This document shows, one piece after another, positions 8,475-43,989 of a stretch of 64,000 nt of DNA. The position numbers and the translations under genes were made by a program. Every line of letters begins with the position of its first letter. Position 1 is the first letter of the stretch. Origin of the DNA: an uncultured Clostridia bacterium (GTDB lineage: Bacteria; Bacillota; Clostridia; TANB77; CAG-508); the NCBI GenBank assembly GCA_944388935.1, contig CALXKK010000001.1:62344-126343 (forward strand), read 5' to 3'. Below the pieces are notes generated by a model. The model was not told the DNA's origin. It did not search any database and was given only the letters and a program-made list of their open reading frames with translations.

Positions 8475-10061
<1,587 letters not shown>

Positions 10062-10086
10062 TTACATCATCTTCCTTTTATTTATT

Positions 10087-11454
10087 TTAATCACTTAATC
10101 TTTGCTCAATTAATTCTGCAATAGATTTAGCTTTTTCTGATATGTACTCTTGGTCTGCTCCTTCTATCATTACTCTAACTAATGGCTCTGTTCCAGATGC
10201 TCTTATTAATACTCTTCCGTTTCCTTCGAACTCTTTTTCTACTTGTTCTATTGTATTTCTAATAACTGCATCTTTATCAAAATCATATTTTTTGCTATTA
10301 GAAACTTTAGCGTTAACTAATACTTGAGGATATATTTTTATTATTTTCTCTAAATCACTTGCTTTTCCGCCTTTTTCCAATAGTATAGAAATAAACATTA
10401 AAGATGTTAAAATTCCATCTCCTGTTGGATTGTAATCTAAGAATATAATATGTCCAGATTGCTCTCCACCTAAGTTGTATCCCTCTTTTTTCATTTCTTC
10501 TAGTACATATCTATCTCCAACTTTAGTTCTAACAAGTTTTAAATCATTATCCTTTGCATACATATCTAATCCTAAATTACTCATAACTGTTGCAACTAAA
10601 GTATCTTTTTTAAGAGTTCCTTTTTCTTTCATATGATTAGATACTATTGCTAAAATTTTGTCTCCGTCTATTACTTCTCCTTTTTCGTCAACTAATAGAC
10701 ATCTGTCTCCATCACCATCATATGCAACACCTAAATCGTATCCATTTTCTACTACATATTTTTGTAGCATTTCTAAGTGTGTTGAACCACAATCTTTATT
10801 TATGTTAATACCATTAGGTGTGTTATTTATTATCTTATGATTAATTTTTAATTTTGAAAATACTTTTTCTGCTACTTGATATGTTGCTCCGTTTGCTGTA
10901 TCTATTACAACCTTAAAATCATCTCTATTGTATTTTTCTATAATTTCTTCAAAATTCTTTCTAAAGAAATATAAATATTCGTCTACTAAATCTCTTGCAT
11001 CTTCTGCAATTCCTATTTTATCATTGCAAGCTGTTAATTCTTCTAATTTTCCAGAGTCCATAACTTCTTCTATTTCTTCTTCTATATCATCTGGAATTTT
11101 TGTTCCTGCATTACTAAAATATTTTACCCCATTAAATTCATAAGTATTATGAGATGCAGAAATTACAACACTTGCATCTGCTTTTAATTTCCTTGTTAAG
11201 TATGCTACTGCTGGTGTTGGTAATACACCTAATTGTTTTACATTTGCTCCATAACTTAAAAATCCAGCTGTCATTGCACTTTCTATTAATGTTCCAGAAA
11301 TTCTAGTATCTCTACCAATTAAAATTGTTGGACTATGGTCAGAATGTTTAGCTAAAACATAAGCACCTGCCTTTGCAACTCTATATACCAATTCTGGTGT
11401 TAATTCTGTATTGGCAATTCTTCTAATTCCATCTGTTCCAAAATATTTTCTCAT
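10087..11454 (-). CDS. glmM: Phosphoglucosamine mutase
   Basis: MRKYFGTDGIRR, SASHN active-site Ser loop, DGDGDR and GGEQSGH motifs. Collinear with B. subtilis GlmM. Confidence 0.85.
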   Translation of the reverse strand: MRKYFGTDGIRRIANTELTPELVYRVAKAGAYVLAKHSDHSPTILIGRDTRISGTLIESAMTAGFLSYGANVKQLGVLPTPAVAYLTRKLKADASVVISASHNTYEFNGVKYFSNAGTKIPDDIEEEIEEVMDSGKLEELTACNDKIGIAEDARDLVDEYLYFFRKNFEEIIEKYNRDDFKVVIDTANGATYQVAEKVFSKLKINHKIINNTPNGININKDCGSTHLEMLQKYVVENGYDLGVAYDGDGDRCLLVDEKGEVIDGDKILAIVSNHMKEKGTLKKDTLVATVMSNLGLDMYAKDNDLKLVRTKVGDRYVLEEMKKEGYNLGGEQSGHIIFLDYNPTGDGILTSLMFISILLEKGGKASDLEKIIKIYPQVLVNAKVSNSKKYDFDKDAVIRNTIEQVEKEFEGNGRVLIRASGTEPLVRVMIEGADQEYISEKAKSIAELIEQRLSD

Positions 11455-11483
11455 TTTTCATCTTTCCTTTCTTTTTTATGAAC

Positions 11484-13199
11484 CTACATTCTATCTGGCA
11501 TTTCCATACCAAGTAGGCCTGCACCTATTTTTAAAACATTTCCAACCATATATGTTAAGCATAATCTTGTGTTCTTAATGTTTTCATCTTCAACAATTAT
11601 TTTATTGTCATTATAAAAACTGCTATATAATTTTGCAATTTCTATTAAATAACGTGAAATAATTGAAGGTTCGTTTTTATCAACTGCTTGACTAACTATA
11701 TCGTTAAACATATATATTTGTTTAACTAATTCTAATCCATGTTCTTCTAATTCTGAAATATCTACTAAATTTTTATTCATTGTATAATTCTCTTTATCTA
11801 ATATACTCTTAGTTCTAACGTACATATATTGAATATATGGTCCTGTTTCTCCTTGGAAATTAAGCATAATATCCCAGTCAAAAACTTCGTCTTTTATCAT
11901 ATTATTAGATAAATCGTTAAATATGACAGCACCAATACCAACTTTTTTAGCTACTTCTTCTCTATTCTCTAAATTAGGATTCTTTTGTTCTATTATTTCT
12001 TTTGCTCTAGATATTGATTCATTTAATAAATCTTCTAGCTTTATTACTGTTCCTTCCCTAGTTGACATTTTTCCTGTTCTTAATCTTACCATTCCAAATG
12101 GTACATGTATTAAACCATTTGTGTATTTTTCGTCCAAGTCTAAGTATTTTGCTACTTCAAAGACTTGTTTAAAATGTAAATTTTGCTCATATGCTACTAC
12201 ATAAATACATTTATCAAAATCAAATGTTCTTGCTCTATACAATATTGCTGCTAAATCACGAGCAGCATATGATGTTGAACCATTAGACTTAACCACCATT
12301 AAAGGTGGCATTCCTTTATCCTCCAAATCTACAATTTCTGCTCCTTGTGATTCTACCAATTTATTATTTTTTCTTAAGATATCAACTACTTCCGGAATCT
12401 TATCTGTATAAAAGGATTCTCCTAAATTGTAATCAAACTTTATATTAAGTATATCGTATACTCTTTGAAATTCTTTTAAACTTAAGTCTTTAAATTTTTG
12501 CCATATTTCTACACAGTATGGGTCTCCATCTTCTAGCTTTTTAAAATTGTTTCTACAATCCTCTAATACTGTTTCATCTTCTTTGCATAGTTCATTTATT
12601 CTTACATAAATTTCTGTAAGTTTATCTATTGGATTTTCTTCTAAATCATATTCACTTCCGAATCTTTTATATCCTTCTATTAGTTTTCCAAATTGCGTTC
12701 CCCAATCACCCAAGTGATTTATACTTATAGTATTATATCCAAGAAATTTATACATATTGTATAAAGCTCTTCCTATTATTGTTGTTCTTAAATGACCAAT
12801 ATGAAATTGTTTTGCTATATTTGGTGATGAATAATCTATAACTATATTTTTTCCATTACCAACTTTTGATGAACCATAGTTTTCTTTTTGTTCATCCATT
12901 TCGTTTAATAGGTCTTTTATTAATAAATCATTATTTACAAATATGTTTAAAAAACCGTTTACAACTTCTATTTTAGAAATGTATTCATTTGGCATTTCTA
13001 TTTTTTCTTTTATTTCATTTGCAATCATTACTGGTGATTTTTTCATTTGTTTTGCAAGTTTAAAACATGGAAGTGCATAATCTCCCATCTTTGTATCTTT
13101 TGGTATCTCTATATAGCTTTTTAACTCATCCTTTGGTAACTCCAATACCTTATTTATTTCTTCCGCTATTTTGTCTTTAAAATCTATCATTCTTTTCAC
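11484..13199 (-). CDS. argS: Arginyl-tRNA synthetase
   Basis: Class I HIGH (FHIGHLR), KMSTR variant of KMSK, DALR anticodon-binding domain and the typical C-terminal ...MPDRM. Confidence 0.95.
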   Translation of the reverse strand: MKRMIDFKDKIAEEINKVLELPKDELKSYIEIPKDTKMGDYALPCFKLAKQMKKSPVMIANEIKEKIEMPNEYISKIEVVNGFLNIFVNNDLLIKDLLNEMDEQKENYGSSKVGNGKNIVIDYSSPNIAKQFHIGHLRTTIIGRALYNMYKFLGYNTISINHLGDWGTQFGKLIEGYKRFGSEYDLEENPIDKLTEIYVRINELCKEDETVLEDCRNNFKKLEDGDPYCVEIWQKFKDLSLKEFQRVYDILNIKFDYNLGESFYTDKIPEVVDILRKNNKLVESQGAEIVDLEDKGMPPLMVVKSNGSTSYAARDLAAILYRARTFDFDKCIYVVAYEQNLHFKQVFEVAKYLDLDEKYTNGLIHVPFGMVRLRTGKMSTREGTVIKLEDLLNESISRAKEIIEQKNPNLENREEVAKKVGIGAVIFNDLSNNMIKDEVFDWDIMLNFQGETGPYIQYMYVRTKSILDKENYTMNKNLVDISELEEHGLELVKQIYMFNDIVSQAVDKNEPSIISRYLIEIAKLYSSFYNDNKIIVEDENIKNTRLCLTYMVGNVLKIGAGLLGMEMPDRM

Positions 13200-13225
13200 C
13201 CTATTCTATCCTATTTTCCGTGCTT

Positions 13226-13254
13226 ATTATATAATAAATGGAAATAGATTGCAA
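13226..13254 (-). promoter_or_regulatory. Putative sigma-A promoter of argS (TTGCAA-N17-TATAAT)
   Basis: Minus strand reads TTGCAATCTATTTCCATTTATTATATAAT about 25 nt upstream of the argS ATG. The leader is too short for a T-box. Confidence 0.5.
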
Positions 13255-13285
13255 TAAAAAAAAATACGTTTTCATAAACAACACC

Positions 13286-13315
13286 AAGGCGGTGGGATTA
13301 TCTTTCCCACCGCCT
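13286..13315 (-). terminator. GC-rich hairpin terminator downstream of the 13350-13835 ORF
   Basis: AAGGCGGTGGGA-ttatcttt-TCCCACCGCCT stem. On the minus strand it is followed by TTGGTGTTGTTTATG. Confidence 0.5.
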
Positions 13316-13349
13316 AAATGCTAAAGATCTTATCTGATCTCTATATTCA

Positions 13350-13835
13350 TCAATAATAGCTTAACATTTTAAGCCAATCATCTATGGAAGTATCACTTCC
13401 CGCAAGCTTCTCTGGTGTAGCTAGCACAATTAATCTGTAAAAATCTTCGTCAAACCACTCATAAGGCATATCACTTCTTGATTGATTATAGGAAGTTATT
13501 GTAACATGGCCTTTTTCATAAATACCCTCGTCAATTATCCCCCAAATCCCTGCGAGCTTATTTAGGTTCAGCCTGAAGAATTCAGCCTTTTGGGGTTCTT
13601 TAGGGTTGTTCACGATTTTTACATCTGTGGCAACAAACTTACACCTGTTTCCATTTATACAACCATATAAAACCTTTTCTACACGACCATCCTCGTTACG
13701 CATAACGCCTCTAATTTCGTCATTGTCCTTATTTACATAGAACAGAATCTTGTACGTGATTTGTTCGCCATCGCATACGAATTCGATGGTCGCTTTGCGG
13801 ATAAAAGATTCAAGATGCAAATAACACATAAACAC
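13350..13835 (-). CDS. Hypothetical protein in a compositionally foreign (high-GC) insert
   Basis: 161-aa ORF with GGAG SD. Local GC is ~43-47 % (counted on 60-nt samples) against ~27 % in the flanks. No recognisable motif, signal peptide or TM segment. Confidence 0.5.
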   Translation of the reverse strand: MFMCYLHLESFIRKATIEFVCDGEQITYKILFYVNKDNDEIRGVMRNEDGRVEKVLYGCINGNRCKFVATDVKIVNNPKEPQKAEFFRLNLNKLAGIWGIIDEGIYEKGHVTITSYNQSRSDMPYEWFDEDFYRLIVLATPEKLAGSDTSIDDWLKMLSYY

Positions 13836-13947
13836 TCCTAAGGTCGATTGTTTTTATTGCTAAGTATTAACTTACAATACCTCCTTATATTGATGAATTT
13901 ATACAAATACACCAATTAATTATATAGATTTTTATGTAAATTGTCAA

Positions 13948-14634
13948 TTAAATAATCTCTGCCTTTTCACTTACTTCTTCTGCTTTTTCTAAAACCGCTT
14001 TCATTCTATAATATGCTTCTTGTTTTAAGCTCTCTATTCTTTCTAATTTATTTTCTATACTCAAGTCTGGATATATTGGTTCTAATACTACTTGAGTTAT
14101 TAAAGGTTTAGTTTTTATATATTTATATATTCCCTCTCTTTCTCTTGTTACTAGTACGCTAGGAACAATTGGCACATTGTTTTCTACTGACATTGCAAAT
14201 GCACCTTTTTTAAATTCTAATAAACTTTGGTCATATAATCTCATTACACCTTCTGGGTAAATATGTACAGTTTCTCCATTTTTTAATAACTCAGAAATAT
14301 TATCATAAAAATGTTTTTTCTCCTCTATCTTTGTTGGAATTGGAATACCTCTTAAAAGCCTAACTAAAGCTCCAACTACTGGTATCTCACAATTTGATTC
14401 TAATGTTATAAAATATGAGTAATCTGGTAAATTTACAATTCCATTCATTGTACAATCTAGATAATGTATATGATTTGAGATTGTTATTTTACCACCTGGA
14501 ACTTTTTTTATATTTTCTTTTCCAATTATTTTATAATTAAAAAATAATTTATCTAAAGCAAATACTATTGGTACAGCAATAGTATAATAAAACACATTCG
14601 CAACAAAATTAAATACTTTGTTCTTTAATTTCAT
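13948..14634 (-). CDS. Lysophospholipid (1-acyl-sn-glycerol-3-phosphate) acyltransferase family protein
   Basis: N-terminal TM helix, HX4D motif (ISNHIHYLDC), later PEG motif (IYPEGV). Confidence 0.65.
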   Translation of the reverse strand: MKLKNKVFNFVANVFYYTIAVPIVFALDKLFFNYKIIGKENIKKVPGGKITISNHIHYLDCTMNGIVNLPDYSYFITLESNCEIPVVGALVRLLRGIPIPTKIEEKKHFYDNISELLKNGETVHIYPEGVMRLYDQSLLEFKKGAFAMSVENNVPIVPSVLVTREREGIYKYIKTKPLITQVVLEPIYPDLSIENKLERIESLKQEAYYRMKAVLEKAEEVSEKAEII

Positions 14635-14798
14635 CTCCTGGCATCTCCTCTATTTTCTACAAAAATTCTTATACTCCATAATTATGTTAATTTTATCATA
14701 TGTTAGTTCATAAGTAAACGTTAATTTTGCTGGTAATTTTTTATACTCCCTTATATAAATTATTCTTTTCTATATAAAAATAAACCTTTTTTCTCCGT

Positions 14799-15599
14799 CT
14801 ATACTCCTACTATTGCTAAAATTAGAGCTAAAATAAAATAAATTAATAATACTTTATTATATAAAACAATTATTGCCAGATATTCGTTTATAAAAGCTTC
14901 CGGGAAATAGTACCAAAGTGTTTTTGAGCCTTCTCCTTTTGCTTTTATTTTATTTTTAGAAGCATATATTTTGCCTCTTAATATATGAAAATTACTACTT
15001 ACAAAAGCTATGTCATTATGTATATTTAGTTTTTCTAATTTTTTCCTAGAAAACTTAAAATTTTCTAAAGTGTTCTTAGATTTATCTTCCATTATTATAT
15101 CATTTGAAGGTATATTATTTTCTATTAGGTATTTTGCCATAGCTTCAGCTTCTGTAATTGTTTCCTGTCTTACTTGTCCACCTGAAACAATAATTTTTGG
15201 CTTAATTTTTTGTTTACTATATATTTTAATTGCTAAATTTAATCTTTTTCTTAAAGCTCTAGTTAACTGATTCCCATTAAGTAAATATCCACCAAGTATA
15301 ATTATCGCTTTATATTCATACTTTTTTATTCTTAAATTAACTAGTATACTTGCCACGCAAAATACTATGAATACCGCTGAAAAATATATAGCCATCAACC
15401 TAATAAAATTCATTATTTTGTTTTCAAATAAACGTGGAAAAATAGAAAGAAGAATAACTATTATTCCTAACGCAAATATCAAATATTTTCGTTTATATAT
15501 ACTCCTCTTTCTATATATATCTGTTAACATTCCAGATATCCCACTATATATTAATAAAATTCCTATAAATAGAAAAATGTTCAAAAATATATTTTCCAT
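14799..15599 (-). CDS. DUF218 (YdcF/SanA/ElyC-like) domain membrane protein
   Basis: Three N-terminal TM helices followed by IIILGGY...RL...A..IY...IIVSGGQ, which matches DUF218. Confidence 0.55.
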   Translation of the reverse strand: MENIFLNIFLFIGILLIYSGISGMLTDIYRKRSIYKRKYLIFALGIIVILLSIFPRLFENKIMNFIRLMAIYFSAVFIVFCVASILVNLRIKKYEYKAIIILGGYLLNGNQLTRALRKRLNLAIKIYSKQKIKPKIIVSGGQVRQETITEAEAMAKYLIENNIPSNDIIMEDKSKNTLENFKFSRKKLEKLNIHNDIAFVSSNFHILRGKIYASKNKIKAKGEGSKTLWYYFPEAFINEYLAIIVLYNKVLLIYFILALILAIVGV

Positions 15600-15610
15600 T
15601 CTTTCTCCTG

Positions 15611-17950
15611 TTATTCACTTGCTTTTTCTAAGTCTTTGCTTAAATTATTTATTAAATATTTAAGTCCTGTAACCACAATATATGCCAAAATCAAAATAGC
15701 AACTAAAATAACTATTGCATCTCCATCTATTGGTGTTAAGTGTAATAAGTTTCTAAACAAAATTACCGCACAGAAAAATCCTACTGCTGTAGTTGTACAC
15801 AAGAACGTACTTATTCTATTAAATGGTTTACATGCATCAATAACTGCAAATATACTTACTCCACCAATAACTAGATACATTAGTGTTTCTGATTCTTCCA
15901 CACTTAATCCTAAACCTGCTCTTGAGAATGTTAGAATTATTATACCAATAATTATTGTTAACGCATATGGCATCGCATTTCTTAAAACCGTCCTTAGGAA
16001 ACGTCCTCTTATTGGTTTTGAGTTCTCTAAGAATGATAAGAAGAATGATGTGTATCCTTCTATTACTAAATCTATTAAAGTAATTTGTATTGGTATAAAT
16101 GGGAATGCTGTGTTTGTAACAATATTAAATAATGATAATAACATTGAATATATTGTTTTTATAAAGAATATTCTTGCCACATTTGTTATATTGTTTACAA
16201 CTCTTCTACCTTCCATTAATACATCTTTTAGTACGCTAAAATCTGAATTTAATAATACAATTTGTGATACTTGTCTTGCTATATCAGATGCTTCTGGTAA
16301 AGTTATACTACAATCAGCTTGTTTTAAAGCTATAACGTCGTTTACTCCATCACCAGTCATTGCAACAGAATGACCTTTTGCTTGCAAAGCTTTTACTATT
16401 ATACTTTTTTGATGTGGTAAAACTCTAGCAAAAACACTATATTTATCTACTAATGCTGGAATTTCGTCATCTGAATTTAATGTAGATAAATCTATGTATG
16501 AATCATATGATTCCAAACCTGCTTTTTTGGCAATACTTGAAACTGTTAAAGGATTGTCTCCTGAAATTATTTTTATATCTACTTTTTGTGTCTTAAAGAA
16601 TCCTAACATTTCCTTAGCATTTTTTCTTAATGGGTCATCTAAAGTAATTGCTGCAACTATTTCAAGCTTTGGTAGTTTTTCATCGCTTACAACTTCTTTT
16701 GTAAAGGCAATAAATAACATTCTTTTACCATCTTTTTGTGCTTTTACTATTTCCTCTGGCATTTCCATATCACTTTTTTCTACAAGTCTTTCTGGCGCTC
16801 CTAAAACAATTGAACCAATATCTTTAAAACTTATAGAGCTCCATTTTCTTTCTGATGAAAACGCCATATTGTCTGCAACTTCAAAACTATCATCCCCCTT
16901 AAAATAATCTTTAAGAGCCATAAAAGTTGCATTGTTGTCCGTCATTTCGTTTACAAATGCTGTCATTAAAGTATTTAAAGGTTTTGGCAAACAATTTTCG
17001 TTATATATTTCTATATTGTCTACCTTCATTTTTCCTTCTGTAATTGTTCCGGTTTTATCTAGGCATAATGTGTCTATGTGTGCCAATGTTTCTACACTAT
17101 ATAAATCTTGAACTAAAACGCTTTTCTTAGCAAGTTTTATAACACCTGTTGCTAGCGAAATTGTTATAAGTAGCATTAAACCCTTAGGTAACATACCTAA
17201 TAAAGCTGCTGCTGTAGAAACAACAGAATTTGTTATATCTATGTTTCTAAAAATATAAGATTGAACAAATAAAATTATACCAACAGGAATAATTACAAAA
17301 CTAGTAAATCTAGTTACTCTTCTCATTGAATTTACAAGTTCAGACTCAGCTCTTTTATATTTCTTTGTTTCACTTGTAATTTGCGCTGCAAAATTATCTT
17401 TACCTACTTTTTCTACCTTAGAGTAACATTTTCCACTAATTACATAACTTCCAGATAATAATTTATCTCCTTTTTGTTTTAAAATTGTATCAGATTCACC
17501 AGTAAGTAATGACTCGTTTACTTCTACTTCTCCCTCTAATACTACAGAATCTGCACAAATTTGCTTTCCTGAGTCCAATATTATTACATCATCTAATACA
17601 ATATCATCTATATTTAATTCTTTCTCTTTTCCATTTCTAACAACTGTAGCTTTAGAAACCTTTAATACAGATAATTTTTGTACTAAATTTCTTGCGTGTA
17701 TTTCTTGCACTATTCCAATTACTATATTTACTATAATTATTAGCATATAAGCTAAATTTGTATATGCTTTTACTGCAATTAATGCTATCGCAATTAATAA
17801 GTTAAATAAATTAAACAATGTACAAACATTATCCCTTATTATCTCCCAGTTGGTCCTTGTTTTGTCATCATCTACTTTATTTACTTGTCCTGATTTTTTT
17901 CTTTCTTCAACTTGCTCTTCTGTTAAGCCATTTAATTCTTCCTTGTCCAA
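15611..17950 (-). CDS. Cation-transporting P-type ATPase (Ca2+-type, P2A-like)
   Basis: CLDKTGTITEG phosphorylation motif, MTGDGVNDVIALKQAD hinge, TGES actuator motif, 8-10 TM helices. Confidence 0.85.
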   Translation of the reverse strand: MDKEELNGLTEEQVEERKKSGQVNKVDDDKTRTNWEIIRDNVCTLFNLFNLLIAIALIAVKAYTNLAYMLIIIVNIVIGIVQEIHARNLVQKLSVLKVSKATVVRNGKEKELNIDDIVLDDVIILDSGKQICADSVVLEGEVEVNESLLTGESDTILKQKGDKLLSGSYVISGKCYSKVEKVGKDNFAAQITSETKKYKRAESELVNSMRRVTRFTSFVIIPVGIILFVQSYIFRNIDITNSVVSTAAALLGMLPKGLMLLITISLATGVIKLAKKSVLVQDLYSVETLAHIDTLCLDKTGTITEGKMKVDNIEIYNENCLPKPLNTLMTAFVNEMTDNNATFMALKDYFKGDDSFEVADNMAFSSERKWSSISFKDIGSIVLGAPERLVEKSDMEMPEEIVKAQKDGKRMLFIAFTKEVVSDEKLPKLEIVAAITLDDPLRKNAKEMLGFFKTQKVDIKIISGDNPLTVSSIAKKAGLESYDSYIDLSTLNSDDEIPALVDKYSVFARVLPHQKSIIVKALQAKGHSVAMTGDGVNDVIALKQADCSITLPEASDIARQVSQIVLLNSDFSVLKDVLMEGRRVVNNITNVARIFFIKTIYSMLLSLFNIVTNTAFPFIPIQITLIDLVIEGYTSFFLSFLENSKPIRGRFLRTVLRNAMPYALTIIIGIIILTFSRAGLGLSVEESETLMYLVIGGVSIFAVIDACKPFNRISTFLCTTTAVGFFCAVILFRNLLHLTPIDGDAIVILVAILILAYIVVTGLKYLINNLSKDLEKASE

Positions 17951-38425: not shown

Positions 38426-41400
38426 CTATCTTTCATCTCTTTCATCACTTTCTTTTCTTATTTCCTCCATAACAGATTTCACCATCTGTCGTTTTTCTAC
38501 ACTTAATGATGACATATCTACTTGTGCATCTTGTGCTCCTATTTGTTTTAATGCTTTCTTCACTTGATAACGTATATGATTTTCCGCTTTTTGCTTTTGC
38601 TCCTCGGTTAACCCCTCTCTTAATGGTGAAGATAAAACATTTCCGATTTTTATTTTTTCATCATCTTGACTATAAATAATAGCCATTCTTGCAGTAGCCA
38701 ATACCCTCGTAGTATTTGGGTCAAGCCCATATTCTTCCGCTACAGTATTCATAAGTCTTTCAGATTTTTTAAGTTGTTCATCATCACCTGTTTCATTAAA
38801 ATATACTGTATTATTGTTTTCAGATTCTCGGTCCATTCTTCTTAATGTTAATAGCACTCTATCTGTCATATTTGTACTATCATACAAAGGAATATCATCT
38901 TGATGAACATATAAGTTTTCTTGCTTAGATTCTACAATTCCATCCCTTTCTGCAATTGTATATTGAATTTTTGCATCAGTATATGGATTTGGTAATCTTC
39001 TTGTAGATTTCACACCTACTGTATCACTTTCTTGATGTATAGTTTTATCCGATTTTATTGCACTCGCAATATCATTATATCCTAAGCCAATTGTTACTTT
39101 GCCTAATACTAATGAATCATATTGTTCTTGCGTAATATCTCCTTTTTTTAACAATTCTTGATATACTCTTTTGTCTTCTTCCATTAAATCTTGTGCTGCT
39201 TTTTTATAGACGCCTAAAACCTCTGCTGCTAAGCCTTTTCTTCCTTTATCAGGATGTTCTGTTTCATATAACCTAAAAATCCTATTGGGTATTTCTATAT
39301 TATCAAAACAGCCTGTGTATTGATTTCTCCAAAACCAACTTTGTGCAACCAATCTTCCTTCTTCATCTTTTACACAAAAAACTCTACCATCAGGGGATAC
39401 AACGCTATGCTCCATACTTGTTTGGCCAGCTCCATGTATTTCTTGGCAACAATCTGTAAGTGTTCCAATTGTTAATGCTAGTGGGTCATCACATCTAAGC
39501 ATTTCGTATGTATACCCATTAGTTTTTCCTTGTATTCTGGGAATACTAGAAAAATCCCTAGTTTCACCTTCATTAAATAGTTTTTGTATAGCTTCAAAAT
39601 CTTCTTGAGAATATCCAGCTATTTTGGCTTGTTCGGCAACTCCCTCATTACCAATATCAATATTAGAATACACTATACTTCTTATATATGCTTGTGCTAC
39701 GTCCCAAGTTAATTTCCTACCAGCATTTGTTCTAACAATATCCTTAAATTGTCTTTGCATTGTAGCAATATCTTTACTATATTCAGGATTTGACAATATT
39801 TCGTCACAATTTTCTACAAAAAATTTAACAAAGTCCGGATTATATTCCATTTTAAAAGAATCAAATATCTGATGAGCTTTAATTGGAGTTAAGATTCTGG
39901 GAAAATCTGCTTCCTCTAATATTCCTCTAACTGTCTTTGTTCTATTCTTGTCACTTTGTGCATTAAATGATAAATTATACTTTCCATCTTTTCCTATTTT
40001 ATATGCTTGTTCTAAAATTGTTTGTAGCTCTTTATTATTTCTATTATAGCTAATTGATTGCATTACTTGTTCATATTCTTCGGCAGATAAATCCTTTGGA
40101 AGTCCTGCAAATAATTCCATTGTCCTATTAAATCCTTCATTATCACCTTGGAATACTCCCATGCTATACGCTGCTTTTAAAAGTGCTGCTTTACCATCGT
40201 TATTACGATTATAAAAATCTATGGTCATTAATTTAGACCATTTTTTCCCATTTGCCAAGAAACTATCAATTTCTTCTTCTGGGAAATTTATCATAACAAC
40301 AAAATTAGGTAAAAATCTTCCACCTGTTGCTTTATACCAACTTTCCAAAGTGCTAACTCTATGGTAACTTACCATTTTATCAATAGTTACTGGATCTCTT
40401 GCTCCTAATTTCATTAATGTATCACTATCAAATTTTCTAAACAATTCGTCATAATTTGGCATAAATGCTAGCCTTATATCTTTTCCTTGTAAAAATTCTT
40501 TCCATTCCGGATATCTCTTTATTAATTCGAAATTTAATTTGATACTAACGTTAGTATCATGTAATTTATTATTATAATACAATGTTTTTAATAATTCTGG
40601 TGCCTCATTATCCAAAAACATCTCCGGACGTCTTTTCTTAAAAAAGTCAGGAATTGTTTCGATAAAAGGAGATTTTCTAGTTAAAATATTCTCCTCTATA
40701 TTTTGCTGTATTGCTCTTTCTTTATCTTGCTTACTTTGACCTTCCACAAAAATTCCAGCGTTAACACCTTCCAAAAATTCTCCGTACTTTTCTGCAAAAT
40801 ATATTATCTCTTGCTCTGTAAGTTTTTCCCACATTGGTCTTACTTCTCTTTGTCTTTGACCATATCTTAGTGGTTTGCATTTTGTATTTCCAAATCCTAC
40901 ACCAATATCTTTTGACAATAATATCTCCCTTAATTGTGGGTTCTGCCTTACATCTTCAAAAGTTAAATCTCCTGAATAAAACTTATTTCTTAATTTTTCA
41001 TCAACCTCTTCTGGAAGAAATAAGTCTGGATGCTTTTCTTTAAAACTTGATGGTAATTCTTCAAAATATACCATTCCCTTATCTTTTATTTCTCCATATA
41101 TAGCATCTTCAATTTTTTCTCTAATACTTTCAAGTGTAAAATCTCTTGAAATGGACAATGATATACTATCTAAGCATTTTCCATAGTCAGCACAAATCCT
41201 TAAGAACTCCTCTTGACCTATTTTTTCTATAACATATTTAGCCATATTTACCTTTTTTCCTTGTAATATTTGTATAAGTTCTGGATTTTGTCTGATATCC
41301 TCAGCACTCATATGTCCTCTATAAAATTTATTTTTTATTGAAACATTAACACCATCTATAAATATATCAGGATGCTCATCTCTAAAACTTCCTGTTATAA

Positions 41401-41773
41401 AATCATAATCAGCGAAAACTCCTGTTTCTATACCTTGCCCTTTTTCTCTTGCATGAAGCAGAATTTCATACATTCTATTTTTAAAATCATCATAGCTTAA
41501 TTCTCCAGAATTAATATCTTTTGAATTTTCTTCATTGCCTGCATATGTATTTGAATCAGAAATAGCAAACACTGTAAGATATATATCATTCCCCCATAAT
41601 GTATGAGAAAACATCCCATTAGTTTCTTCATCCAACCTAATTATATTATCTATTCCATATTTTGTTATAAATCTTCTTTTACTCTCCGAATGTGGTCCCA
41701 TACTGATAGAATCAATAGGAATTTTTTCTATTTCCAGTAATTCTTTAATTCGGTGTAAATCTAATACTTCCAT
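38426..41773 (-). CDS. Large (1115 aa) repeat-containing intracellular protein of unknown function
   Basis: No signal peptide or TM segment. Three ~45-aa internal repeats (xHPD[IL]F...NKFY.G.[LM][ST].ED[IV]RQNP.L..IL). Central Cys/His-rich block LRCDDPLALTIGTLTDCCQEIHGAG...RVFCVKDEEGR. Acidic coiled-coil tail. AAGGAG SD. Confidence 0.5.
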   Translation of the reverse strand: MEVLDLHRIKELLEIEKIPIDSISMGPHSESKRRFITKYGIDNIIRLDEETNGMFSHTLWGNDIYLTVFAISDSNTYAGNEENSKDINSGELSYDDFKNRMYEILLHAREKGQGIETGVFADYDFITGSFRDEHPDIFIDGVNVSIKNKFYRGHMSAEDIRQNPELIQILQGKKVNMAKYVIEKIGQEEFLRICADYGKCLDSISLSISRDFTLESIREKIEDAIYGEIKDKGMVYFEELPSSFKEKHPDLFLPEEVDEKLRNKFYSGDLTFEDVRQNPQLREILLSKDIGVGFGNTKCKPLRYGQRQREVRPMWEKLTEQEIIYFAEKYGEFLEGVNAGIFVEGQSKQDKERAIQQNIEENILTRKSPFIETIPDFFKKRRPEMFLDNEAPELLKTLYYNNKLHDTNVSIKLNFELIKRYPEWKEFLQGKDIRLAFMPNYDELFRKFDSDTLMKLGARDPVTIDKMVSYHRVSTLESWYKATGGRFLPNFVVMINFPEEEIDSFLANGKKWSKLMTIDFYNRNNDGKAALLKAAYSMGVFQGDNEGFNRTMELFAGLPKDLSAEEYEQVMQSISYNRNNKELQTILEQAYKIGKDGKYNLSFNAQSDKNRTKTVRGILEEADFPRILTPIKAHQIFDSFKMEYNPDFVKFFVENCDEILSNPEYSKDIATMQRQFKDIVRTNAGRKLTWDVAQAYIRSIVYSNIDIGNEGVAEQAKIAGYSQEDFEAIQKLFNEGETRDFSSIPRIQGKTNGYTYEMLRCDDPLALTIGTLTDCCQEIHGAGQTSMEHSVVSPDGRVFCVKDEEGRLVAQSWFWRNQYTGCFDNIEIPNRIFRLYETEHPDKGRKGLAAEVLGVYKKAAQDLMEEDKRVYQELLKKGDITQEQYDSLVLGKVTIGLGYNDIASAIKSDKTIHQESDTVGVKSTRRLPNPYTDAKIQYTIAERDGIVESKQENLYVHQDDIPLYDSTNMTDRVLLTLRRMDRESENNNTVYFNETGDDEQLKKSERLMNTVAEEYGLDPNTTRVLATARMAIIYSQDDEKIKIGNVLSSPLREGLTEEQKQKAENHIRYQVKKALKQIGAQDAQVDMSSLSVEKRQMVKSVMEEIRKESDERDER

Positions 41774-42932: not shown

Positions 42933-43892
42933 TTAAAAGTCTCTATCAAAACCTTCATCATTAATTTCTTGAGAAACCTTCTTGCCCCTAGAAAAAATGC
43001 CTCTTAAACTTGATTGAAGTCGTGTTAAATTTCCAGTACTTCTTCCAAACGCAATTTTTTGTACTTCTCCTCCTCCAAAACCGCTAGGAGAATTTGCTGT
43101 TGCTCTTACACTTCTAGTTTTACCTTCATCTAAAAATCTTGACTTCTCTTGAACCATATCTATAAACTCTTCAAAAGTATAGACCTTAGAAGCATCCAAC
43201 CTAGATTCTTGCATCCATTTTTGTACTCTAGCTTTATTCTCCGGTGATGTAAAAATGCCAAATAACTGCTCGGGATTTCTTTTTAGGTTTACTGAGCCCA
43301 TTGCGTCCATTATTTTAAGCTTTTCATCTTGCTTACCTTTTGGTAGAAGAGCAAAAACACATCCGCAAGGCAATGAACGTTCATATGCAGTTAAATCTGT
43401 ATAGAATGCTACTGTTCTATTCATAGATCTCACTGTTGTAGCCGAAATTTCTCCCTTAGGATTTGTAGATTTTACAAATCCATTATACCTATCTGCAGAA
43501 GAAGAAATATTTCCACTTCTAATAATTTGCTCCGCATAATAAATTGGAGTACCATGAAATCTTAAATCCAATTTATCTGAAATAACAGCATTAAGTCTTG
43601 CTGAAAATGTTCTAAACTGATAAATTCTATAATTCATATCTTCAGCATTATTAGGTCTAATAAATTTAGCAGTAAGTTTTACTTCTTCGATATTATATTT
43701 CCATTTTTCAACTTCCATATATGCTTCCATATACTCTACAGATCTTCTACCATACCTTCTTCTAGTTACATTTAAATCTTGCATAGCATCTGCTAAGCTT
43801 TTATTATATCTATTAAATTTAGAATTTAGGATTTCTCTATCCTTCTCATATAATTTTTGTGGATCTGTTTCTCTCCTTATTCCATTCTTCAT
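42933..43892 (-). CDS. Hypothetical protein (~320 aa); N-terminus of the ORF-track model is REP-derived
   Basis: The track ORF begins MLDNINIIFELLRSVPKVQSS, which is the in-frame translation of REP copy D. The likely true start is ATG 43892 (MKNGIRRETD) or 43910. No family recognised. Weak R/S-T-N/E-Q pattern only. Confidence 0.4.
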   Translation of the reverse strand: MKNGIRRETDPQKLYEKDREILNSKFNRYNKSLADAMQDLNVTRRRYGRRSVEYMEAYMEVEKWKYNIEEVKLTAKFIRPNNAEDMNYRIYQFRTFSARLNAVISDKLDLRFHGTPIYYAEQIIRSGNISSSADRYNGFVKSTNPKGEISATTVRSMNRTVAFYTDLTAYERSLPCGCVFALLPKGKQDEKLKIMDAMGSVNLKRNPEQLFGIFTSPENKARVQKWMQESRLDASKVYTFEEFIDMVQEKSRFLDEGKTRSVRATANSPSGFGGGEVQKIAFGRSTGNLTRLQSSLRGIFSRGKKVSQEINDEGFDRDF

Positions 43893-43917
43893 TTTATCTT
43901 TACACCTCATCTGTTTT

Positions 43918-43953
43918 GAACTTTGAACTTTGGGGACGGACCTTAAAAGTTCA
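43918..43953 (+). repeat. REP-like repeat, copy D (extended form TTGAACTTTGAACTTTGGGGACGGACCTTAAAAGTTCAAATATTATGTT)
   Basis: Near-identical over ~50 nt to copy E. Confidence 0.6.
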
Positions 43954-43989
43954 AATATTATGTTAATATTATCTAACATCTATTTTTAT

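Follow-up and report, generated by a model that had tools for sequence, protein, structure and literature searches.

Genomic islets are small lineage-specific insertions of under 10 kb, and the ORFans of AT-rich genomes are usually more AT-rich than their host. For integron cassettes, an own promoter is unusual. Among the single-gene modules described so far is the phage moron, such as gene 15 of HK97, which is a piece of DNA that is extra with respect to related genomes, deviates in GC content, carries its own promoter and terminator, and resides in a phage (PMC3594210).

The locus considered herein was found in a 64-kb stretch of bacterial DNA that was analysed as a whole (the window). Like a moron, the insert at this locus is an addition between two conserved syntenic genes, as seen from the empty site in relatives; its GC content is 37.9 %, against 27 % in both flanks; its own predicted promoter and terminator would make it an independent transcription unit; and it encodes one small protein, as morons usually encode one small accessory protein. 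On the other hand, it sits between bacterial housekeeping genes and has no phage or viral relative in the collections searched. The insert shares three of the four moron features and lacks residence in a phage, and it is not a moron in the strict sense. With ORFans and genomic islets it has in common a restriction to one lineage, a short length, a lack of homologues, an atypical composition, a patchy phyletic pattern and relaxed constraint, although it is GC-richer than its host and has unusually complete predicted expression signals. The most fitting category for it is the horizontally acquired ORFan islet, which is a familiar one. Such an insert is an ordinary result of horizontal gene transfer; islets of orphan genes that are specific to a lineage are common, and current understanding is not overturned.

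We consider it probable that the insert is a single-gene islet acquired horizontally and built like a phage "moron", but placed in the core chromosome; our confidence is good for its origin and architecture and low for any specific function. As we propose, about 685 nt of foreign DNA would have replaced a spacer of about 100 nt, including the terminator hairpin of the acyltransferase gene; the recipient would have been the ancestor of a single uncultured Clostridia species of the human gut, a relative of "Clostridium sp. CAG:354". The incoming DNA would form a complete predicted transcription unit, with a sigma-70 promoter, an AGGAG ribosome-binding site, a 159-aa open reading frame (ORF) and a GC-rich hairpin terminator, and argS keeps its native promoter intact just downstream of the insert. 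Because the unit is complete, as far as predicted signals can tell, the orphan gene should be expressible on its own and argS should be insulated from it. The insert may represent a clean, well-bounded case of a foreign gene with its full signals settling between essential genes in a reduced, AT-rich gut bacterium. The features are as follows, in the order of transcription.

13948 to 14634, minus strand: acyltransferase gene, PlsC-type, 228 aa (TIGR00530/PF01553), a flanking core gene
13919 to 13947, minus strand: predicted sigma-70 promoter TTGACA-N17-TATAAT, matching the consensus at 12/12 positions
13830 to 13918, minus strand: 5' untranslated region, AT-rich, 89 nt, read from the sequence
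13839 to 13835, minus strand: ribosome-binding site AGGAG, 5 nt before the ATG at 13829
13350 to 13829, minus strand: orphan ORF, 159 aa plus stop codon (13352 to 13350), GC 37.9 %, GC3 38.4 %
13322 to 13343, minus strand: small AT-rich hairpin with an 8-bp stem, just past the ORF stop (RNA fold)
13287 to 13315, minus strand: GC-rich hairpin with a perfect 11-bp stem and a 7-nt loop (inverted repeat and RNA fold)
13263 to 13286, minus strand: tail of the species-specific segment (pairwise alignment with related locus L013)
13226 to 13254, minus strand: native argS promoter TTGCAA-17-TATAAT, outside the insert and marking its right-hand boundary
11484 to 13190, minus strand: argS, arginyl-tRNA synthetase, 568 aa, a flanking core gene

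Both flanking genes had been named correctly in an earlier reading made from the sequence only. The argS product carries the domains PF03485, PF00750 and PF05746, which were detected on a 99.7 %-identical copy, and PF01553 identifies the acyltransferase. The wider neighbourhood of the orphan gene (argS, glmM, metG, the acyltransferase gene, a DUF218 gene and a P-type ATPase) is housekeeping in character. From 13948 to 13199, the minus strand of the window sequence carries exactly one ORF. The sequence-only reading had reported a single ORF of 161 aa; the single ORF stands, and the length is corrected to 159 aa from the ATG at 13829, since the GTG start that would give 161 aa overlaps the AGGAG motif and gene callers on all metagenome contigs return 159 aa.

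The predicted promoter of the orphan gene begins at the base right after the acyltransferase stop codon (13950 to 13948). A perfect TTGACA-N17-TATAAT occurs once in the 64-kb window, against 0.08 expected, and it belongs to the orphan gene and to no core gene. RNA structure in the leader (13830 to 13918) is not significant (z = -1.55). Promoter and leader together have a GC content of 23 %, and this AT-rich part might be native or reshaped DNA and not imported. At the other end, the inverted repeat of the claimed GC-rich terminator after the ORF is borne out, with arms AGGCGGTGGGA...TCCCACCGCCT at 13315 to 13287, followed by the U-rich tail UUGGUGUUGUUUAUG. Its RNA folds with -34.9 kcal/mol (z = -7 against shuffles). 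The hairpin sequence occurs once in the window; every conspecific locus has it, and no related species does. It is a predicted intrinsic terminator for the orphan gene, and may now serve the acyltransferase gene too. A search of the region with Rfam returned no family at the gathering thresholds, with a sub-threshold 27-bit match (gathering score 60) over the terminator hairpin.

The composition of the segment sets it apart from the rest of the window. Exact computation gives a GC content that is not uniform: 27.9 % for the whole window, in agreement with the background of about 27 % that had been stated, 27.2 % for argS, 26.3 % for the acyltransferase gene, 37.9 % for the orphan ORF and 38.6 % for the GC-rich core at 13287 to 13846. 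The interval 13280 to 13870, for which the sequence-only reading had given 43-47 %, comes to 37.7 %, so that the segment is indeed compositionally distinct and its GC content had been overstated; the maximum is 40 % for windows of 200 nt and 43 % for windows of 100 nt. The region of the orphan ORF is the GC-richest 486-nt stretch of the 64 kb (z = 3.1; reached by 0.17 % of windows). GC1, GC2 and GC3 of the ORF are 0.447, 0.308 and 0.384, against means of 0.396, 0.291 and 0.163 for the 44 long ORFs of the window; GC1 and GC2 are normal, and GC3 is a strong outlier (z = 5.4; other ORFs 0.163 ± 0.041, n = 43). The likelihood of its synonymous codons under host usage lies at z = -10 compared with other genes, and host-rare codons, defined as those used by the host for less than 8 % of the respective amino acid, make up 16 % of the ORF, compared with 6 % or less in any other ORF. 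Foreign GC3 and codon usage together indicate a genuine reading frame, and DNA that evolved outside the host genome.

A GC content of at least 36 % over 486 nt is found elsewhere in the window only at 39161-39657 and 42941-43537. Both stretches were considered as further islets and rejected; they lie inside the core ORFs 38426-41773 and 42933-43979, and since GC3 is normal there (0.17-0.19), the elevation reflects amino-acid composition and not foreign DNA. Of the 44 window ORFs, one is an islet of the present kind.

Comparison with relatives supplies the second line of evidence. A scan of genome collections with the acyltransferase yielded 17 related loci from metagenome-assembled genomes of uncultured human-gut Clostridia ("Clostridium sp. 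CAG:354", "CAG:273" and similar), with 61-84 % identity in the acyltransferase and 78-92 % in ArgS. In 12 of these, which are GTDB species representatives, the spacer between the acyltransferase gene and argS measures 87-305 nt and holds a terminator hairpin and the argS promoter but no ORF. Scanning metagenomes with ArgS brought in another 27 loci with both genes, 26 of which have gaps of 92-208 nt; the 27th has a different cassette in the spacer. The argS promoter is conserved in all related species. The closest empty site is that of L013 (acyltransferase 84 % and ArgS 92 % identical), and at these values the flanks of the window locus look vertically inherited, as judged by sequence comparison. 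Aligned with L013, the species-specific segment runs from 13947 to 13263 (685 nt) and takes the place of about 100 nt, among them the L013 terminator hairpin; homology restarts at about 13262, at the T-run ahead of the argS -35 box. The interval 13280-13870 had thus been located properly, and its limits had been drawn too narrowly. The native terminator hairpin of the acyltransferase gene is conserved in relatives and missing in the window species.

Within the species, the insert is present in every conspecific contig examined, from about 10 samples, with flanks that are 99-100 % identical. The orphan protein cluster has 6 members with at least 97 % identity, all at exactly this locus, and 8 of 8 contigs that encode an identical acyltransferase carry the orphan ORF. 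One cluster member of 76 aa was considered as a sign of decay or pseudogene formation and rejected. Its conspecific contig, L054 (ERZ21563605 contig_2850), is an error-ridden long-read contig in which argS is split into 4 ORFs and the acyltransferase gene into 2, and frameshifts in both of these genes indicate that the 76-aa form is a sequencing error. In every conspecific contig with an accurate assembly, the orphan ORF is unbroken.

Absence in the sister species together with presence in all sampled strains places the insertion after the split from the sister and before the common ancestor of the sampled strains. The latter limit agrees with the polymorphism density, which is 10 per kb in the insert ORF and 2.5-13 per kb in the flanks. 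The acquisition had been called "recent". This holds in so far as it post-dates the split from a sister with 92 % ArgS identity, but not in the sense of a very young event, because the insert is already in every conspecific contig and has a flank-like polymorphism density. Horizontal acquisition from a higher-GC donor, as had been suggested, is well supported by GC3, by codon usage and by the empty site in all related species examined; orthologues at the locus, which would have spoken against such a transfer, are found in none of the 12 representatives or the 27 metagenome loci.

The same data bear on the opposite idea, namely that the gene is native to the genus, ancestral, of atypical composition, and repeatedly lost in relatives. 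Its location in a syntenic core region and its presence in every conspecific contig found would fit this account. However, the ORF is an extreme outlier in GC3 and codon usage among 44 ORFs, its absence in all related species including the sister would need many independent and precise losses, and the spacer of the relatives has a conserved native terminator that is missing here. We regard a native origin as extremely improbable.

As for the route of entry, no integrase, transposase or phage gene is found within about 10 kb on the acyltransferase side and about 5 kb on the argS side. The best terminal repeats around the insert, an inverted pair of 21 nt (81 %) and a direct pair of 17 nt (76 %), are by our estimate at chance level for AT-rich DNA. 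One-off illegitimate or homology-assisted recombination, and not a site-specific element, probably brought the insert.

It is very unlikely that the insert derives instead from a site-specific mobile element, whether as a cassette or as a remnant, with the hairpin as its recombination site; elements of this kind would be integron cassettes, MITE- or IS-derived elements and prophage remnants. A compact single-gene module with a strong inverted repeat at its end, the weak flanking repeats just mentioned, and an unrelated second module in the same spacer, which hints at a preferred site, can be cited for it. They are set against the lack of integrase, transposase and phage genes over the distances given above, the chance level of the repeats, the hairpin being unique in the window and found nowhere else among the fetched loci, the lack of common end DNA between the two cassettes, the presence of an own predicted promoter, and the lack of matches in phage, plasmid and viral collections. 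The insert resembles an integron cassette in having a single ORF followed by an inverted repeat with an imperfect tail, and in that the cargo at one site varies by lineage. On the other hand, the gene calls, which cover about 10 kb upstream and about 5 kb downstream, include no IntI and no other recombinase domain, there is a single module and no array, and the integron attC site is an imperfect palindrome with conserved R/L boxes and extrahelical bases, of an architecture common to different cassettes, whereas the hairpin of the insert has a perfect 11-bp stem with no bulges. With its own predicted promoter, and with two cassettes that share no end sequence, the insert is not an integron cassette.

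The second foreign cassette measures about 650 nt and lies in the acyltransferase-argS spacer of two further species (L016:3480-4160 and L019:6740-7400, and also L074 and L103-L110). It has a GC content of 42-44 % and a GC3 of 0.42-0.44, and it is ordered as a promoter with an extended -10 element, a leader containing the conserved hairpin ctgcaataaagactttagRttgcag, a 159-aa ORF and a GC-rich hairpin. Its protein is an orphan too, known from three clusters only; the structural model (pLDDT 71) is alpha/beta with a long C-terminal helix, and a comparison of this fold with the PDB gave no match (best E = 0.7). A relationship between the two 159-aa proteins was considered and rejected (BLASTP E = 0.02 over 14 aa; hhalign probability 1.5 %). 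The two cassettes share no DNA, including their ends, and their terminal hairpins differ.

The L019 locus has a mixed ancestry: in ArgS it is 96 % identical to its own clade (L007), whereas in the acyltransferase it is 91 % identical to L016 and only 59 % to L007. This mosaic indicates that the acyltransferase gene and the second cassette crossed species by homologous recombination of their flanks, and the case supports recombination as the vehicle in the genus. The second cassette and the L019 transfer may illustrate how orphan genes spread in the genus without mobile-element machinery.

Two unrelated orphan modules in three species, both GC-richer than the host and both exactly 159 aa, raise the question of whether the spacer between the acyltransferase gene and argS is a recurrent landing pad for foreign promoter-ORF-terminator modules in the genus. 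We hold this to be quite doubtful. Across about 15 lineages, sharing of the spacer by coincidence is not negligible, with a rough estimate of the order of tens of percent. If the landing pad were real, it would point to an unrecognised recombinase-independent capture process or to strong selection for small accessory proteins next to argS, and its cargo could include new immunity or anti-phage proteins.

The orphan product itself is a protein of 18.6 kDa with a pI of 5.1 and four cysteines, and no signal peptide, membrane segment or hydrophobic segment is predicted (maximum Kyte-Doolittle 19-residue mean 0.72). That it lacks a recognisable motif, as had been noted at the outset, was confirmed by every profile, pairwise and cluster search made. 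No profile of Pfam, NCBIfam or PADLOC reached E <= 1, and PHROGs gave a single non-significant match (E = 0.038). The best match in a PDB sequence search had an E-value of about 0.9. With tblastn, nothing was found in the INPHARED phages and one match (E = 3) in the PLSDB plasmids, and a scan of the IMG/VR viral contigs gave no match. A word-indexed search of 5.8 billion proteins and clusters returned only the orphan's own cluster, and phmmer over 1.84 billion representatives returned the protein itself and one weak match, P0007 (E = 4e-4). This 4165-aa flavobacterial adhesin-like repeat protein was rejected as a homologue and judged a chance match: the identity is 26-32 % over about 60 aa, the match straddles two repeat domains, its score is summed over five repeats, and the conserved cysteines of the P0007 repeats have no counterpart in the orphan protein. 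No donor sequence was found in the phage, plasmid, viral-contig or protein collections searched, and the orphan protein founds a family without relatives among about 15 billion sequences.

Single-sequence AlphaFold modelling of the orphan protein reached a pLDDT of 35, which is unusable, and offers only hints of beta-strands at residues 13-66 and of a C-terminal helix. The product is predicted to be soluble, acidic, probably beta-rich and cytoplasmic, and with no enzymatic signature it would most likely act by binding and not by catalysis. Since the AlphaFold model is unusable, this picture of a beta-rich binding protein has a weak basis. If functional, the protein would be new in fold or in function, with a possible part in conflicts between bacteria or with phages.

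Polymorphism within the species was surveyed in 7 strain-level contigs. The orphan ORF shows 5 nonsynonymous changes (R11C, K12Q, I98V, E101D, L153F) and 0 synonymous ones, whereas the flanking genes show 4 nonsynonymous and 11 synonymous changes (argS alone 1 and 7), and the two ratios differ (Fisher p = 0.008). The contrast of 5:0 with 4:11 suggests that the orphan protein is without the purifying selection seen on its neighbours. The 5:0 pattern is also compatible with neutrality (P = 0.33, with 80 % of the ORF sites nonsynonymous). Selection on the orphan ORF would accordingly seem relaxed or diversifying, not purifying, a statement resting on five substitutions only.

One account of this pattern is that the insert is a functionless passenger, a foreign fragment with an intact ORF that reached fixation by drift or hitch-hiking, the gut lineage having a small population, and that now drifts neutrally towards decay. 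All five within-species substitutions being nonsynonymous, unlike in the flanks, fits such a passenger, as does the failure of AlphaFold to give a confident fold; that no homologues were found anywhere searched leaves it with no evidence of conserved function. Yet none of the accurately assembled conspecific contigs shows a broken ORF, a 160-codon open frame at this composition would arise by chance with a probability of about 2e-5 (our own estimate, inferred from base frequencies), and the perfect promoter, the ribosome-binding site and the terminator, all of them predicted, have been kept. We consider a passenger without function unlikely, although it deserves more weight than any other alternative discussed here.

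Diversifying selection would suit a different account, in which the orphan product serves in immunity or as an anti-phage or anti-defence protein and has been retained for neutralising a competitor toxin or a phage function by binding. The protein is small, acidic (pI 5.1) and cytoplasmic; it is foreign and limited to one lineage, yet it is in every strain contig found; the predicted consensus promoter suggests constitutive expression; and polymorphism that is nonsynonymous only fits an arms race. However, the 5:0 ratio is equally expected from neutral drift (P = 0.33), and none of PADLOC, Pfam and NCBIfam gives a match, with the E = 0.038 hit in PHROGs as the only signal. The neighbours are housekeeping genes, with no toxin, immunity-gene array, defence island or phage context, and no homologue is found in phage or viral contigs. 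Comparison with the orphan immunity genes of polymorphic-toxin systems leads to a similar balance. The insert is like them in coding for a small, acidic, cytoplasmic and fast-evolving protein of one lineage, and unlike them in that a toxin gene and an immunity-gene array are lacking and that none of the known immunity families is matched (Pfam Imm, SUKH, SMI1 and similar; Pfam and NCBIfam at E <= 1). The defence proteins of PADLOC-DB likewise provide 0 matching profiles at E <= 1. A role in immunity or anti-defence, as had been suggested from the sequence only, is in our judgement rather improbable.

Several other features of the region were observed on the way. Every related species (L004-L020, L103-L109) has a nadD-like gene (about 199 aa, PF01467) between its DUF218 and acyltransferase genes, and many relatives have a glycosyltransferase gene of 366-372 aa in the same interval as well. 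The corresponding gap in the window, 14635-14798, is only 164 nt long, and by tblastn the nadD-like and glycosyltransferase genes are absent from the 64 kb. In one metagenome contig (L080:129-1900), the acyltransferase upstream of argS is cut to a 71-aa C-terminal remnant that follows a 504-aa ORF, which from a reading of its sequence we take to be a glycoside-hydrolase-18 or YaaH-type protein. Finally, the minus strand holds 42 of the 44 long ORFs of the window and the plus-strand GC skew is negative (profiled over 10000-17000); the orientation of the ORFs and the skew fit a leading-strand region of a Firmicute-like chromosome.
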